Origin: a virus
DNA length: 54,320 nucleotides
Direction: 5' to 3' (one strand)
Virus genome (UHGV): UHGV-1522278
This document shows positions 9,947 through 50,560 of this stretch, one piece after another. The position numbers and the translations under genes are program-made. The notes below the pieces were generated by a model that saw only the letters and a list, made by a program, of their open reading frames with translations, was not told the DNA's origin and made no database searches. Each line of letters begins with the position of its first letter. The stretch's first letter is position 1.

Positions 9947-10037
9947 CTAAAAAACACCAAAACGTAAACAGAAAACCATGTTTATCATTTAAATATCAAG
10001 TGCTTATAAAATTTTATAAAAAAGTATACAAAATGTG

Positions 10038-10066
10038 TTGACTCGTGTTTTTACGGGGCGTATATT
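10038..10066 (+). promoter_or_regulatory. near-consensus sigma70 promoter (TTGACT - 17 nt - TATATT) flanked by an inverted repeat
   Basis: -35 at 10038-10043, -10 at 10061-10066; TTGACTCG (10038-10045) and CGAGTCAA (10069-10076) are exact reverse complements. Confidence 0.55.
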
Positions 10067-22476: not shown

Positions 22477-22531
22477 TGGTATTGCTTTCACGCAATAAAT
22501 ATAAAACGTGATCTACCTCGCAAAATATACG

Positions 22532-36613: not shown

Positions 36614-37294
36614 ATGATTCATGTTCGAACAGGACAATTTGCGGCTGTGGTCGATGGCAGGCGGTATGTGTTTAATCCCTGCTTTGCTGCAATGGCTAAG
36701 ATCGGCAGTGACAGGGAATTGGTCGAATACTTCGCAACTGTGCACGGTGGTAAATATCCACAGCGTTTGCCAACGGATCCAGACCTCCGCAATCGCATTA
36801 TGGCGCGTTGTTATGGTGAGTTAGTGCAAACGTCCATCCACGTCCTGAAATGTTGCTCAGAATGCGAAATAGGCCAGTTATTGGGCGAATGCAGCTTTAC
36901 TCCTTCGGGTAAGTTGAGACTGAAACCTGGGTTGATGCCCACCAGCGACGTTATCACGCTGGCGCAACACTGCATGTTCCACGGTTTAATTGGTGACGGT
37001 CCAGAGGAAGACACGGGCGAAAACCATGATGGCGAGTACAAGCCCACATTCGACATCCTCGAATATGTTTACTCCGCCGTTGCTCACCTGGGATTGTCTG
37101 AATCTGAAGCATGGGGCATGACAATGACCGGATATAGGGCCGCTGTACGAGCTAAAACGCCACCAGACGAAAGAAACGAGAAAGGTAAACCAAACGTTCA
37201 TATAAATAAACGTGATTATGATGAGCAAATGGAGGCCGCTAAAAGGGTGCTGGAATTGATGAAAAAACGCGAGCAAGAAAAAGCCCGGGGTTAG
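36614..37294 (+). CDS. tail assembly chaperone (putative)
   Basis: start at the ATG at 36614; between major tail and tape measure genes; no G/GT frameshift identified. Confidence 0.5.
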   Translation: MIHVRTGQFAAVVDGRRYVFNPCFAAMAKIGSDRELVEYFATVHGGKYPQRLPTDPDLRNRIMARCYGELVQTSIHVLKCCSECEIGQLLGECSFTPSGKLRLKPGLMPTSDVITLAQHCMFHGLIGDGPEEDTGENHDGEYKPTFDILEYVYSAVAHLGLSESEAWGMTMTGYRAAVRAKTPPDERNEKGKPNVHINKRDYDEQMEAAKRVLELMKKREQEKARG

Positions 37295-37300
37295 CCGGGC
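37261..37300 (-). terminator. terminator hairpin for the minus-strand cassette (overlaps the chaperone stop)
   Basis: GCCCGG-ggttag-CCGGGC; on the minus strand it is followed by a T-rich tract. Confidence 0.5.
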
Positions 37301-37334
37301 GTTATATGTCGATGATGCTTTTTGATAGTGCCCA

Positions 37335-37751
37335 TTATCTGAACCTTACTATTTCAATTCTGCCGTTGCCCAAGTCAATGATGGCATGATTTTTTATACC
37401 CGCGCCGCCTTCGTTAAATATTCTTTCAGCAAATGCGGCTTTATCAGCGTTACACTCATTGGCTATTCTGTTTCTTATTTCATCGTTGCCTTCGAATACG
37501 ACGCCTACAGCAGCCTCCTTCACAAGCCCCCAGTTAAACCATCTTGCGTAAACTGGTTTACCTTCGAAATGCTTATCAATTGCTTCATAAAAAACCTTAA
37601 TGGCGGCCGGTTCCTTCTTGAAAATTTTATGGTATTCGGCAACGTTGTTTGCTACTTCATTGCAGTTTATGTTTATTGCTTCGTTTGCATTGGCGTTGAA
37701 TGCCATACCAACCATTACCGCCATCACCGCCGCTTTGATTAACCGTTTCAT
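37335..37751 (-). CDS. secreted protein of unknown function (minus-strand insert in the tail module)
   Basis: 138 aa; signal peptide MKRLIKAAVMAVMVGMAFNANA; two Cys; opposite strand to all flanking tail genes. Confidence 0.65.
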   Translation of the reverse strand: MKRLIKAAVMAVMVGMAFNANANEAININCNEVANNVAEYHKIFKKEPAAIKVFYEAIDKHFEGKPVYARWFNWGLVKEAAVGVVFEGNDEIRNRIANECNADKAAFAERIFNEGGAGIKNHAIIDLGNGRIEIVRFR

Positions 37752-37763
37752 AACCCACCCCGC

Positions 37764-37850
37764 TTAGTTTTTATTTTTAAGTGCTTTCAGCATTTCTTCT
37801 ATAAAGTCGGCATAGTGCTCATGCTCGTTGGGTCGGTAGTAGTTTTTCAT
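37764..37850 (-). CDS. small ORF (28 aa) upstream of the secreted-protein gene
   Basis: GAGGA RBS; 12-nt gap to the next gene. Confidence 0.35.
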   Translation of the reverse strand: MKNYYRPNEHEHYADFIEEMLKALKNKN

Positions 37851-38007
37851 TTTCTTATCCTCTTTTGCTTCCTCCGGTTAATCCGGCCTTTTAAGTCCCT
37901 TCGCTCTATCCCTTTTCTTTATCTTCTTTATACAAAATGTACTCGTTGAAGTGAAGCCATTTTGTATAAAATAGAGACGTGGATCACATTTCGTATGAGG
38001 TTAAATC

Positions 38008-40347
38008 ATGGCTACCAGTTTAGGTACAATTTATTACGAAGTCGATGCAAAAACTGGTCAGCTTCTTGTCGCTCAACGACAGGCAGACCAGGCTTTTGAC
38101 AGTATAGAACGCGGCGCAAAACGTGCTGACCGCCAGGTAAACACACTGAAGACATCAATCAAAGCACTGTCCAGGGTTATACATCTGCTACTTGCCGCAG
38201 AGGCTGTACGCCAGTTTATTGACATGGCGGAGCAAGCAAAAATGCTTCGCGTAAAAATCAAAATGCTTACTGGTGATGCAGAGGTCGCAGGACGTGTTTT
38301 CGATGGCCTGAAAGAAATATCAAAAGAAACCGGGCAAAGCCTGAAGGATACTGGCGAACTATGGCAAGGCCTGGCTATCTCACTGAAGAACACGTCAGCT
38401 ACGGATGGTCAATTGCTTAACCTGGTTGGCACGATTCAAAAGATGGGGGCGTTAGGCGGCGCGTCAGCGGAACAGATGTCTAATTCTATGCGCCAGTTCC
38501 GCCAGTCTATAGACGGTGGCGTTCTTCGTGCCGAAGAGTTTAACAGTCTGCTTGAAAACACGCCGACCATCGTACAGACAATGGCCCGCCATATGGGGTT
38601 GTCAATGGGTCAGTTCCGCGCCGAAATGCTGGACGGCAAGATCACGGCTGAAAGGATGGTTAACGCGATCCAGGCAGCTACACAGGAAACAAACGAGAAG
38701 TTTGCACAGTTGCCTCGCACATCCGGCAAGGCTATCAATGAGCTTAAAGTAGAGGTGATGGGGCTTGTTGAGCAACTGGATGATCTTTTCGGTGTATCAG
38801 ATGGCGTTGTGTCAGCTATCGACCTAATAACTGGCGGCGTTGAGGGATTAGGTAAAGGTGCAAAATTCGCCGCAACCTGTTTCAATACACTCAAAACCGC
38901 TGGCAGCGAGTTTATAGACATGTTTGACGACGTTGCTGTTAAAGCTGGTGAGGTGGCGGAAGAGATTATCAGGATGGTAACGCCAATAAAAGCGCTAATG
39001 GATGGCTACAAATGGATGAAGGAGATCATTGATAAACGCAAGGAAGAGCTAAACAGCAATAACGAGAAGAAATTCGGCCCCACCATTGGCAAATTCATGA
39101 CGTTTAAGAATGACATCGAAAAAGCAACTGCCGCTTATGATGAGTTCATGCAGAAACAGGGTGAGGCTAACGATGGCAAGATCACCGGATTCGATCAGCC
39201 AGTTGGTAAGCCGAAAAAACCGAAAAAACAAAAGAAATCTGAAGCTGATCGGCTTGGTGATGAAGGTATAAAAGTGTCCGACCAGTACAACAAGGACGCC
39301 GCCGCTATGCGTAAAGCACTGGAGAACGGCAAGGCCATTGATGCTGCATTCGCCCAGGGAAAAATAACCCTCCTTGAGTACAAGGCCGCGCAGAAAGGGA
39401 TAGGTAAGGAACTGAAGGACGAATTGGCCCAAATCCCGGTGGAAGAATTGCAAGACAAATGGGCGCACATAGTAAGCCCAATGGATCAACTTAAGGGCGA
39501 AATTGACCCCATCAAACAGGTGCAGAATGAGTGGGCCGTCAAAAAACAAATGCTGATAGACCTGGGCGCTACAGAAGCGCAACAGAAACAGGCGCTTTTG
39601 GAATATGAGCAACAGATACGAGATCTGAAGTGGGAACAATGGCAGGCGCAAAGCGACACGAATAGCCTAATCGGTGCTTGTGTTAGTGGCCTAAAAGGTG
39701 GCATGGGTAATGCGCTCACCGGCCTGTTAAACGGTACTCAATCATTAAGCGAGGTTTTCGCCAACCTGGGAAGCAGTATCCTCAATACCGTTGGCAACAA
39801 ACTATCAGAGATTGCCGCTAACTGGATAGCAGATCAATTGATGATGGAAACGCAAAGCAAGGCTACCCAGGCAAGTACAACTGCTGGCGCTGTGGCGGCG
39901 CAAGGTCAGATTGCTGCGGCGGCGGCCCCGGCTGCGGCTGCAACGGCTGCGTCAACTGGTGGTAGCTGGGCTGCGGCTGGTGCTGCGGCACTTTCTGCGA
40001 TCATGTCGCTGGCAACATCAATTTTTGGCGGCGGGCGTTATAATGGTGGTTCTGTAAATGGTGGCAGCCTGTATCGCGTAGGGGAACACGGGATTCCTGA
40101 GTTATTCCAGACGAGCAACGGGCGTCAGTATATGATTCCTGGGGAAAATGGCAGGGTTATTCCTGGCCGCGATCTCTTCAATGGTGGCGGCATCAATATG
40201 CCTGTTAACATCACAGTACAGACCACAAACGGATTTAGCGACGAAGACGGTCGCAGACTTGAACAGACGATGGAACGCGTAGCAATGAAAATGATGGCAA
40301 GGGAATCGCAACGACCGGGAGGAATGTTGCAACCGCGCCGCAAATAA
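38008..40347 (+). CDS. tail tape measure protein
   Basis: 779 aa; long helical protein with Ala/Gly-rich segment; position before the M/L/K/I/J-like genes. Confidence 0.85.
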   Translation: MATSLGTIYYEVDAKTGQLLVAQRQADQAFDSIERGAKRADRQVNTLKTSIKALSRVIHLLLAAEAVRQFIDMAEQAKMLRVKIKMLTGDAEVAGRVFDGLKEISKETGQSLKDTGELWQGLAISLKNTSATDGQLLNLVGTIQKMGALGGASAEQMSNSMRQFRQSIDGGVLRAEEFNSLLENTPTIVQTMARHMGLSMGQFRAEMLDGKITAERMVNAIQAATQETNEKFAQLPRTSGKAINELKVEVMGLVEQLDDLFGVSDGVVSAIDLITGGVEGLGKGAKFAATCFNTLKTAGSEFIDMFDDVAVKAGEVAEEIIRMVTPIKALMDGYKWMKEIIDKRKEELNSNNEKKFGPTIGKFMTFKNDIEKATAAYDEFMQKQGEANDGKITGFDQPVGKPKKPKKQKKSEADRLGDEGIKVSDQYNKDAAAMRKALENGKAIDAAFAQGKITLLEYKAAQKGIGKELKDELAQIPVEELQDKWAHIVSPMDQLKGEIDPIKQVQNEWAVKKQMLIDLGATEAQQKQALLEYEQQIRDLKWEQWQAQSDTNSLIGACVSGLKGGMGNALTGLLNGTQSLSEVFANLGSSILNTVGNKLSEIAANWIADQLMMETQSKATQASTTAGAVAAQGQIAAAAAPAAAATAASTGGSWAAAGAAALSAIMSLATSIFGGGRYNGGSVNGGSLYRVGEHGIPELFQTSNGRQYMIPGENGRVIPGRDLFNGGGINMPVNITVQTTNGFSDEDGRRLEQTMERVAMKMMARESQRPGGMLQPRRK

Positions 40348-40351
40348 ACAA

Positions 40352-40381
40352 AACCCCGGTACAATGCCGGGGTTATCTTTT
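40352..40381. terminator. bidirectional rho-independent terminator
   Basis: AACCCCGG-tacaatg-CCGGGGTT with T/A-rich flanks on both strands. Confidence 0.55.
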
Positions 40382-40556
40382 AGTTATTCTCAAAACTTGT
40401 ATATCCTCTTTCAATTTTCCCTCCGTGTACACTTCTGGCAAATACCGCGTCAGTATACCTGAAAAATGGGCATGTATATGTATCCCCTTTACTATCCATA
40501 TATTTTAGCACCCACGCCATACGTTTTACGTTGCTTTTATTTGCCGGGTTTTTCAT
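40380..40556 (-). CDS. small protein (58 aa), last gene of minus-strand cassette B
   Basis: GGAGG RBS; MKNPANKSNVKRMAWVLKYMDSKGDTYTCPFFRY... Confidence 0.4.
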   Translation of the reverse strand: MKNPANKSNVKRMAWVLKYMDSKGDTYTCPFFRYTDAVFARSVHGGKIERGYTSFENN

Positions 40557-40574
40557 TTTATTTTCCTCCGCAAA

Positions 40575-40667
40575 TCACAATCTTCCGTTTCTTGCTACAT
40601 AGCTGCGAGCAAACATCACCTGCCAGATGTTCCAGATCTCCCTCCAGGTGAATTTATCGTCATCCAT
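40575..40667 (-). CDS. micro-ORF (30 aa) in cassette B
   Basis: GAGGTGA RBS overlapping the upstream stop; Trp-rich MDDDKFTWREIWNIWQVMF... Confidence 0.25.
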   Translation of the reverse strand: MDDDKFTWREIWNIWQVMFARSYVARNGRL

Positions 40668-40675
40668 ATTTCACC

Positions 40676-40930
40676 TCATTTATGTGCCCCTTTTACGCCA
40701 CAGTGGCGGTTGTATTCCAGATGGTCAATAATTAACCACATCTTTAGATCTTCGCTGAATAACCGCCAATCGGGGTTGATGTCAAATTTATAACCGTAGC
40801 CATCGCGTAATTTTTTGGGGTTGGCCTCTTTTTTCAGGAAAGCATTTAATAAAGCCTTGCCTTTTTTGATGATCCGTTCCTGGGCGTTTTTCTGTGCTTT
40901 CAGGTTTTTGCCAATCATTACCAATTTCAT
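40676..40930 (-). CDS. hypothetical protein (84 aa, Lys-rich N-terminus) in cassette B
   Basis: GGGGTGAG RBS; no motif recognised. Confidence 0.55.
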   Translation of the reverse strand: MKLVMIGKNLKAQKNAQERIIKKGKALLNAFLKKEANPKKLRDGYGYKFDINPDWRLFSEDLKMWLIIDHLEYNRHCGVKGAHK

Positions 40931-40950
40931 AACTCACCCCACGCAATCAA

Positions 40951-41106
40951 TCAGTTGACCACTTTCAGGAAGAAATCACGGTATTCATCTTCTTTTGCAT
41001 TCATCATAAATTGACCGTATTTGAATGCATCATCAAAACCCTTCACAATCGCAACTTCCACCTGTTCGAATGCTTTGTTTAGCATTACCACTACATAGCG
41101 TTCCAT
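40951..41106 (-). CDS. small protein (51 aa), first gene of cassette B
   Basis: AAGGAGG RBS; MERYVVVMLNKAFEQVEVAIVKGFDDAFKYGQFMMNAKEDEYRDFFLKVVN. Confidence 0.4.
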   Translation of the reverse strand: MERYVVVMLNKAFEQVEVAIVKGFDDAFKYGQFMMNAKEDEYRDFFLKVVN

Positions 41107-41275
41107 ATTGGCCTCCTTTGTTGGTGCTGCTTTCTCTTCTTGATTTCTATATACATCTTGTCACGTCATGTGTGAAGCCGTTTTGTAAACTGGGTATAAT
41201 TCTTGTGACAAAGTTCTCATTTTTCGCGTAGAAGCGCGTAAAGATGTATGCAATATGTAACTTATAGGGGGAATC

Positions 41276-50285: not shown

Positions 50286-50313
50286 AACCCCGCTTCGCGC
50301 GGGGTTTTCTTTT
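50286..50313. terminator. bidirectional rho-independent terminator between J and the lipoprotein gene
   Basis: AACCCCGC-ttcgc-GCGGGGTT followed by TTTCTTTT. Confidence 0.6.
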
Positions 50314-50560
50314 AGTAGTTAGCTACACAGTTAGAAGGGCTACCGATGCGGCGCATGTTGTGATCGAGTTCGTGACACCATTGACCAGTATATGGCAGTT
50401 TTTCAGTGTCATAGACTAGATGCCCGCCACCATCATAAACAACATCTTGCGGAATTACTCCACTATTCGGCAGGTTATGCAATGCAGCCTCTTTGTCAAC
50501 AGAGCAACCAGTAAGAGCAACAGCCGCAGCGAACAAAACCACTTTGAACACGTTTTTCAT
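50312..50560 (-). CDS. lipoprotein, candidate Cor-like superinfection-exclusion protein
   Basis: 82 aa; signal peptide plus lipobox (MKNVFKVVLFAAAVALTGC); convergent with and immediately downstream of J. Confidence 0.7.
   Translation of the reverse strand: MKNVFKVVLFAAAVALTGCSVDKEAALHNLPNSGVIPQDVVYDGGGHLVYDTEKLPYTGQWCHELDHNMRRIGSPSNCVANY

Follow-up and report, generated by a model that had tools for sequence, protein, structure and literature searches.

Between its genes for a DUF6246 protein and the tape measure protein, the virus genome UHGV-1522278 carries a backbone-encoded antisense expression site, a 'cargo dock' of mEpimmI-type temperate coliphages. The cargo held here is a minus-strand gene for a protein of 138 amino acids (aa), preceded by an open reading frame (ORF) of 28 aa (the micro-ORF), and in related phages unrelated genes take its place. 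In the following, the window is the whole stretch of DNA that was analysed, with a length of 54,320 nucleotides (nt). The anatomy of the site, its conservation, the exchange of its cargo and the coding status of both ORFs are matters of observation. We are highly confident of the architecture as a whole and of the status of the 138-aa product as an exported accessory protein.

The window represents a mEp021-like (mEpimmI) phage of Escherichia coli, with a DNA identity of 92.8-93.9% to mEp021 and mEp010 across the whole region. The mEpimmI group consists of Nus-dependent, non-lambdoid temperate coliphages from human faeces (PMC11893012); the paper on this group discusses neither the 138-aa gene nor the antisense site. 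The exact 138-aa protein of the window is recorded from one E. coli contig of 160 kilobases, and the window is therefore a prophage.

Exchangeable Cargo at a Fixed Site

The DNA that separates the DUF6246 gene from the tape measure gene in other mEp phages and in E. coli prophages resembles the window at its two ends only. Pairwise BLAST comparisons with loci carrying other cargo placed the left junction at 37303 in nearly all cases (37288 and 37300 in two), just past the terminator hairpin. The right junction fell at 37686-37758, either inside the region coding for the signal peptide or at the ribosome-binding site, and with the 116-aa cargo it lay at 37686, the exact codon boundary of the predicted cleavage site. 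These junctions put the 28-aa ORF, the inverted repeat upstream of it and the terminator on the side of the backbone. The first-pass annotation had taken the 138-aa gene and the 28-aa ORF together for an insertion. The segment at ~37304-37750 is indeed exchangeable, but the 28-aa ORF, the repeat and the terminator are backbone elements that serve at least seven cargo modules.

The comparison covered about 45 loci, namely 22 viral and 9 metagenomic loci from a scan for the conserved leader together with loci from GenBank and RefSeq. All of them have the inverted repeat, the purine-rich leader, an ORF of 27-29 aa and the ribosome-binding site downstream of it. Seven unrelated cargo modules (A to G in Table 1), nearly all encoding envelope proteins, occupy the site in the combinations A, A+E, B, B+C, C, D+E, D+F and G; the metagenome scan yielded no further cargo type. 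The start codon of the cargo is 99-102 nt from the ATG of the micro-ORF in nearly all loci.

Families A, B and G have a common signal peptide at the protein level and partly at the DNA level, B and G being otherwise unrelated. When the profiles of families A and B were aligned with hhalign, only residues 1-28, i.e., the signal peptide, could be aligned. Cargo E shows a weak likeness to BamE/OsmE-type stress lipoproteins (E values of 5e-4 and 4e-3), below the curated Pfam and NCBIfam cut-offs, and the search with the 100-aa protein of cargo C led to another orphan family. Nearly all cargo families of the site lack annotation.

The base composition also sets the antisense segment apart. The G+C content is 42.0% in the 138-aa gene vs 49.3% in the DUF6246 gene and 50.0% in the tape measure gene, and it is 36-37% in the 28-aa ORF and in the DNA preceding it. 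The sign of the GC skew switches across the antisense segment, so that the skew is inverted relative to the flanks.

A search based on DUF6246 in other genera gave one locus, in Providencia sp. Je.9.19 (L035, 4125-6103), with 44% identity. The island behind DUF6246 at this locus contains a 61-aa Cys-rich ORF, a 105-aa ORF, an antisense 86-aa ORF and a gene for a 340-aa membrane protein, and has no micro-ORF. Other genera, too, may have a hotspot downstream of DUF6246.

The Microprotein Gene

The 28-aa ORF ends 12 nt upstream of the start of the 138-aa gene and has its own ribosome-binding site, AGAGGA. It was found at every related locus, regardless of the cargo, in 20 distinct nucleotide versions that encode a near-identical peptide, MKN(Y/VN)Y(R/H)PNEHE(H/R/Y)YADFIEEMLKALKNK(N/K). 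Third codon positions are variable in 16 of 25 codons and second positions in 3 of 25. The ratio of nonsynonymous to synonymous polymorphism (pN/pS) is 0.09 for the ORF and 0.08 on its core codons, the lowest value among the six frames; the open plus-strand frame over the same DNA has a pN/pS of 3.1. Judging by this substitution pattern, the 28-aa ORF, which the first-pass annotation had listed as an upstream ORF, is a real microprotein gene under strong constraint.

Exact 29-aa variants of the microprotein occur on hundreds of E. coli contigs. The tblastn matches of the micro-ORF among phages were confined to the mEpimmI group, and its back-translated pattern was absent from 185,579 species-representative genomes.

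In deposited annotations, the micro-ORF is omitted, extended to 42-46 aa or overlaid by plus-strand ORFs. Plus-strand ORFs over this region (37815-37949) are called in the records of mEp010, mEp554 and mEp044. RefSeq has a minus-strand version extended to 46 aa and the mEp021 record has none; mEp515_84 is the sole annotation that matches the 29-aa frame favoured by the substitution pattern.

The microprotein is hydrophilic, with a grand average of hydropathy (GRAVY) of -1.5, and its C-terminal part is likely an amphipathic helix. As a conserved amino acid sequence is needless in a passive leader, it is probably either a small protein in its own right or a regulatory nascent peptide. A more elaborate proposal, to which we give only about one chance in several, is that the mEpimmI phages possess a 'plug-in' site for envelope proteins. 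Such a site would consist of a fixed palindromic promoter, the microprotein leader, a ribosome-binding site, often a signal peptide, and a terminator, with promoterless cargo being swapped through recombination in flanking DNA that is conserved. In that case, the microprotein would act as a sequence-specific regulator, either nascent or in trans, coupling cargo expression to the status of translation or secretion, or else as an effector of its own.

The 138-aa Protein and Its Predicted Export

The minus-strand gene that had been placed within the tail operon holds up as a coding sequence: its pN/pS of 0.19 over 10 distinct alleles points to purifying selection. The signal peptide and the two cysteines described with it were found as well. 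By inspection of the sequence, the protein has the three regions of a type I Sec precursor, namely a charged n-region (K2, R3, K6), an h-region (A7-F18) and an AXA cut site (A20-N21-A22, preceding N23), with neither a twin arginine nor a lipobox. This is the sole hydrophobic stretch of the protein. Both C30 and C100 and the sequence AFNANA at the end of the hydrophobic segment, where the cut site lies, are invariant in 16 homologues of 70-97% identity, and AFNANA recurs in the unrelated cargo families B and G. We infer that the protein is exported via Sec and that C30 and C100 form a disulfide; the mature part is predicted to have about 116 aa and a mass of 13 kDa. In the homologues P0011 and P0012, the Asn-Ala dipeptide that closes the signal peptide (NANA) is repeated further, giving NANANA and NANANANA, which points to slippage during replication of the c-region, directly ahead of the cleavage site.

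The AlphaFold model built from the family alignment has a confident compact fold, with a predicted local distance difference test score (pLDDT) of 76 and a predicted template modelling score (pTM) of 0.75. It consists of five helices followed by a C-terminal beta-hairpin, with low confidence in parts of residues 1-23. The structure prediction that had been recommended earlier thus gave a compact helical fold but no specific structural relatives, as the Foldseek search of the model against PDB and BFVD had no match at E <= 0.001.

The scans of the 138-aa and 28-aa proteins against Pfam, PHROGs, NCBIfam and PADLOC gave nothing above threshold; no PADLOC-DB model matched either of them or the DUF6246 protein. 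The PDB sequence searches, performed with the 138-aa protein alone and with the 16-sequence profile, gave no match. The kinship with lysozyme inhibitors, immunity proteins or virulence factors for which a homology search had been advised did not appear, no similarity being found. In particular, the protein matches none of the profiles of periplasmic lysozyme inhibitors (Ivy, MliC/PliC and PliG), and its predicted fold is not beta-rich as theirs is.

A structural tail function, which the first-pass annotation had also considered, was not borne out. The Pfam and PHROGs scans revealed no homology of the 138-aa protein to tail proteins. The mEp021 annotators mapped virion proteins by mass spectrometry, and in their record the neighbours of gene 63, the homologue of the 138-aa gene, are labelled 'virion structural protein', whereas gene 63 is without that label.

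The exhaustive hidden Markov model search of 1.8 billion representatives returned, beyond the family itself, EF-hand repeat proteins and one other repeat protein only. Kinship with the EF-hand proteins was rejected. These eukaryote-like matches are limited to residues 39-75. The 12 residues of an EF-hand loop include Asp, Asn or Ser in the first, third and fifth positions, Gly in the sixth, a hydrophobic residue in the eighth and Glu in the twelfth. In the loop D59-R70 of the query, positions 3, 5, 8 and 12 are occupied by H, E, P and R, so the calcium ligands are absent. The query had no match to the EF-hand profiles either. We regard the matches as artefacts because their scores, and hence their E values, are inflated by the summing of 4-14 repeats and the query loop has no calcium ligands. 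As the searches revealed no relatives in sequence or fold beyond the family, homology yields no function for the 138-aa protein.

The family is narrowly distributed. The search of 5.8 billion proteins gave 17 clusters, and every one with a named source is from E. coli or from uncultured Caudoviricetes; each family member that was checked occupies the same antisense slot. The tblastn search of 50,697 phage records matched solely mEp010, mEp021 and MagusPhagus. The 138-aa cargo is carried, over at least 80% of the query, by 2 of 5426 complete E. coli genomes.

Putative Promoter, Leader and Terminator

The perfect inverted repeat of 11 base pairs (bp) noted in the first-pass annotation is present, but its true length is 13 bp: TTTATACAAAATG (37927-37939) and CATTTTGTATAAA (37958-37970) are separated by an 18-bp spacer. 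With 89% complementarity, pairing continues over 18 nt. Among 30 loci, which comprise 21 distinct sequences, neither arm shows any variation, whereas 8 positions of the spacer vary; the leader, the microprotein gene and the ribosome-binding site likewise differ little or not at all in the 30 loci. The repeat contains a putative minus-strand sigma-70 promoter, in which one arm would be an upstream element and the other would hold the -10 hexamer. Meanwhile, the mirror-image promoter on the plus strand has a poor -35 hexamer (CTCGTT).

The same geometry (ATACRAAAYG, 2 nt, a -35-like hexamer, 17-18 nt, TATAWW) recurs at three other sites of the genome. At 10026 it belongs to a probable early promoter (10036-10064) beside a CI-like repressor gene, with TTGACT, 17 nt and TATATT followed by a boxA-like sequence. 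At ~41190 it lies upstream of a second antisense island, and the third further copy of the promoter-like layout is at 22527. That this layout is found at three further promoter-like sites speaks for a promoter of the sigma-70 type ahead of the antisense unit. Bidirectional transcription and the binding of a dimeric regulator are candidate readings of the palindrome. A role of the inverted repeat as the operator of the CI-like repressor was considered but gained no support: the palindrome by the early promoter (TTATAAAATTTTATAA at 10004, a candidate operator) has no copy near the slot.

The sequence ATACRAAATG occurs in 10 copies in the window vs 0.48 expected, with a maximum of 3 in 200 simulations. 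The copies are at 10026, 10493, 17520, 22527, 23190, 26728, 37930, 37958, 37987 and 50626. At four sites, 2 nt separate the sequence from a -35-like hexamer downstream, and TATAWW comes after a further 17-18 nt; inverted pairs of the kind seen in the slot are also found at 22527 and 17452/17520. ATACRAAATG looks like a common upstream promoter element or regulator site of the phage.

Three relatives with different cargo (L011, L024 and L029) have a purine-rich insertion of ~93 nt between the putative -10 hexamer and the CCGG hairpin (~37905-37915). The insertion adds to the length of the 5' untranslated region and fits a leader that is not translated. Rfam had no match for the leader region, and the leader did not fold better than shuffled sequence (z of -1.2).

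The terminator hairpin that had been assigned to the 138-aa gene as its own is present. However, it includes the stop codon of the DUF6246 gene and is conserved whichever cargo is present, and is therefore a backbone element, not private to the 138-aa gene.

Table 1. Features of the antisense site and its flanks, and cargo modules found at the site
Feature	Position	Strand	Details
Tail tube gene	36082-36558		upstream of the DUF6246 gene
DUF6246 gene (left flank)	36605..37294	+	PF19759, E 1.7e-56; phrog_791 (function unknown in PHROGs)
Hairpin terminator of the antisense unit	37283..37300	-	GCCCGG-loop-CCGGGC, then TTTTTCTT; terminator scan of both strands
Exchangeable cargo segment	~37304..37750	-	single 138-aa gene here; homology breaks on either side
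138-aa exported protein gene	37335..37751	-	ORF; orphan family; homologue of mEp021_63 (annotated as hypothetical)
Sec-type signal peptide coding region	37686..37751	-	MKRLIKAAVMAVMVGMAFNANA; predicted cut after A22
Cargo ribosome-binding site, 12-nt spacer	37752..37763	-	GCGGGGTGGGTT on the minus strand; conserved across cargo types
Microprotein gene, first in the antisense unit	37764..37850	-	28 aa, MKNYYRPNEHEHYADFIEEMLKALKNKN; 27-29 aa in relatives
Purine-rich 5' leader, ~70 nt	37851..37920	-	AGAGGA (37858-37863); small conserved hairpin CCGG-ATTAA-CCGG (37874-37886)
Putative sigma-70 promoter in the inverted repeat	37927..37970	-	TATACAAAATG (37958-37968), GC (2 nt), -35 TTCACT (37950-37955), 17 nt, -10 TATAAA (37927-37932)
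Tape measure protein gene (right flank)	38008..40347	+	PF20155, E 8.7e-51; phrog_1538
Cargo A			138-aa secreted protein
Cargo B			116- or 119-aa secreted protein
Cargo C			35-aa and 100-107-aa proteins, both with hydrophobic membrane-type segments
Cargo D			219-aa VasI/TagO-like lipoprotein; PF11319, E 2.2e-16
Cargo E			124-aa lipoprotein
Cargo F			106-aa protein, no export signal
Cargo G			165-aa secreted protein

Flanking Genes and Other Antisense Units

The left flank had been called the tail chaperone gene. The name suits its place in the gene order, but the product is a DUF6246 protein (PF19759), which can be called a tail assembly chaperone by position only. Between the tail tube and DUF6246 genes, a strong terminator-like hairpin stands on the plus strand at 36576-36593, with a 7-bp stem (6 G-C pairs) followed by TTATTTTT; it is likewise annotated in mEp021 and mEp010. 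This hairpin sits within the late operon and must be read through if the DUF6246 and tape measure genes are to be transcribed.

The second antisense island, on the minus strand at 40348-41275, is located between the tape measure and minor tail genes. It contains a 51-aa ORF, an 84-aa homologue of ParE-like toxins (PF24732, E 6e-12), a 30-aa ORF and a 58-aa ORF, and has 40% G+C, a terminator-like hairpin at ~40355-40377 and a promoter-like region built as in the slot. This island is probably a toxin-antitoxin moron. The third antisense gene (50312-50560, minus strand) lies between two tail fibre-like genes for proteins of 1813 and 1108 aa. It encodes an 82-aa lipoprotein with the lipobox LTGC and is followed by a terminator; direct and inverted repeats (CATTTTGTG / CACAAAATG, TTGTGATCTGTGT) are present upstream. 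Its product is probably the Lpp/Cor-like exclusion lipoprotein of the mEpimmI phages.

Proposed Function and Its Alternatives

We propose that a sigma-70-type promoter in the 13-bp inverted repeat drives a short minus-strand operon with the order of purine-rich leader, 28-aa microprotein gene, conserved ribosome-binding site and exchangeable cargo. The micro-ORF and the cargo would be translated from one mRNA, and transcription would end at the hairpin that overlaps the end of the DUF6246 gene. The 138-aa precursor would be exported by Sec and cut after A22, giving a 13-kDa, mostly helical periplasmic protein with a probable C30-C100 disulfide. Since the unit is antisense to the late operon and appears to have its own promoter, it is most likely expressed in the lysogen, where late transcription is off; this assignment to the repressed prophage rests on the orientation and on the sigma-70-like promoter. 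The product would then protect the lysogen at the level of the envelope by blocking the periplasmic stage of genome entry of a superinfecting phage. We consider the whole chain, from architecture through function, tentative, with somewhat less than an even chance of being right.

Among the possible functions, we place interference with phage genome entry first, followed by toxin immunity, host fitness and a role in the lytic cycle. What favours the first is that the sibling cargoes are nearly all envelope-bound and that HK97 gene 15 stands at the same position. The first-pass annotation had regarded the gene as a candidate for lysogenic conversion or exclusion. This class is a reasonable one for a gene of low G+C that is replaced in relatives and has the position of HK97 gene 15, but no homology to immunity or virulence proteins came to light. 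Superinfection exclusion as the specific function of the 138-aa protein is possible, though we consider it clearly less probable than not.

Several points weigh against the proposed chain. The promoter is a sequence model, and a strict consensus promoter scan missed it, the final T being absent from TATAAA. The profile, PDB and Foldseek searches revealed no homology or fold match of the 138-aa protein to exclusion, immunity or defence proteins, and its export and disulfide are features that we infer. For the mEpimmI phages, an exclusion lipoprotein (Lpp) encoded elsewhere in the genome has already been demonstrated (PMC11893012), so that a second exclusion gene is not required. Besides, the VasI/TagO-like sibling cargo D points to type VI secretion and not to phage, and as the cargo families are mutually unrelated, the argument from siblings to function is weak.

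Small exported disulfide proteins are typical of immunity proteins against periplasm-acting toxins. The 138-aa protein might be an orphan immunity protein that protects the lysogen against type VI effectors, colicins or lysozymes. The same cargo D, being of a type VI-associated family, speaks for this explanation, as does the envelope-directed nature of nearly all modules; the homology searches described above gave no similarity to immunity proteins. We regard this explanation as rather unlikely.

More doubtful still is a role in host fitness or virulence in the manner of lambda Bor or Lom, contributing to stress tolerance, serum resistance, adhesion or colonisation and unrelated to defence. 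The moron context of the gene, the origin of these phages from human gut isolates (PMC11893012) and the weak BamE/OsmE likeness of cargo E agree with it. However, the 138-aa protein has no homology to any virulence factor, the family is as rare in complete E. coli genomes as given above, and a soluble periplasmic protein could not itself contact host cells or serum.

An improbable alternative is a role in lytic growth, in which the exported protein would modulate lysis or prevent the re-adsorption of progeny to debris and the microprotein would be the key product. The ATACRAAATG element of the putative promoter is also found at the probable early promoter (10026) and at 22527, so that shared regulation with lytic genes is possible, and the microprotein is kept in all members in the manner of a core gene. 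On the other hand, the antisense unit would collide with late transcription, free replacement of the cargo by unrelated proteins is not expected for a step of the phage's own cycle, and the low G+C is that of acquired DNA.

Finally, one might take both ORFs for frames that are open by chance in the spacer between two tail genes and cite the plus-strand ORFs called on the same DNA in several GenBank records. This view is already refuted by the substitution pattern (pN/pS of 0.19 and 0.08, with alternative frames at 1.3-3.1 or interrupted by stops) and sits badly with ribosome-binding sites on both ORFs, invariant cysteines and cut site, and the compact AlphaFold fold.

Significance of the Site

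If the architecture holds, the site is a compact natural expression-and-export cassette, in which one promoter, one microprotein leader and one signal peptide serve at least seven unrelated cargoes. The roles of small orphan envelope proteins of gut E. coli prophages would then become directly testable, and so would the reason for strong purifying selection on a 28-aa peptide ahead of the cargo. Should the cargo prove to block phage genome entry in the periplasm, a soluble Sec-exported type would join the few known entry-blocking proteins. The databases can also be corrected, as the deposited mEp genomes either lack the micro-ORF, have it in a lengthened form or show ORFs on the plus strand in its place. 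What the analysis adds is a cargo dock with clear limits and a microprotein gene that is well supported but unannotated.

Comparison with Known Systems

The 138-aa gene is a 'moron'-type accessory gene at a classic moron position. As in morons in the sense of Juhala and Hendrix, its presence at the same map position is variable, six other modules replacing it between identical flanks, and its base composition deviates in G+C and in GC skew. Unlike in a moron, the promoter and terminator do not travel with the gene; they lie outside the exchanged segment and are common to all cargo.

Lambda bor and lom are expressed from the prophage as envelope proteins encoded among late genes (PMC3594210). 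However, they are outer-membrane proteins or lipoproteins with known roles in serum resistance or adhesion, and they have no sequence similarity to the 138-aa protein. The Lpp (Cor-like) lipoproteins of the mEpimmI phages are encoded antisense to structural genes and exclude related phages (PMC11893012). They come from the same phage group and are small exported proteins in antisense orientation. The locus and the protein are different, though, and Lpp is marked by a lipobox, which is absent from the 138-aa protein with its type I (AXA) cut site.

Sim of phage P1 is a periplasmic superimmunity protein processed from a precursor with a signal peptide, and its soluble form stops infection once the phage has adsorbed. 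Among precedents for phage exclusion by a soluble periplasmic protein, Sim is the nearest. It differs from the 138-aa protein in its genomic context and shows no detectable homology to it (tblastn, 50,697 phage records).

The P2/P4 hotspots, reported by Rousset et al. in 2022, are said to hold variable accessory genes of temperate phages and satellites. The site in the window is similar in that it is fixed between conserved phage genes and that unrelated cargo is swapped in it among close relatives. It differs in that the cargo consists of small envelope proteins, with no cytoplasmic defence system recognisable by PADLOC, and in that a single promoter, leader microprotein gene and ribosome-binding site, and often a single signal peptide, serve all the cargo.

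The closest parallel in position is gene 15 of HK97, the first moron described, which lies between the chaperone and tape measure genes and is expressed from the prophage; its product gp15 blocks the entry of the superinfecting genome in a manner dependent on the tail of the incoming phage (PMC3594210). The two genes have in common the exact map position, an accessory nature with absence from relatives, transcription signals of their own and an envelope product (PMC3594210). The products themselves are of different kinds: gp15 is a YebO-like inner-membrane protein, whereas the 138-aa product is predicted to be soluble with a cleavable signal peptide, and has neither a YebO or other Pfam match nor an N-terminal transmembrane anchor. 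The loci also differ, as in the window the promoter, the microprotein gene and the terminator are fixed in the backbone and the coding cargo alone changes. What is distinctive of the mEpimmI site among these systems is, therefore, its backbone-encoded frame of promoter, microprotein leader, signal peptide and terminator, common to unrelated cargo.

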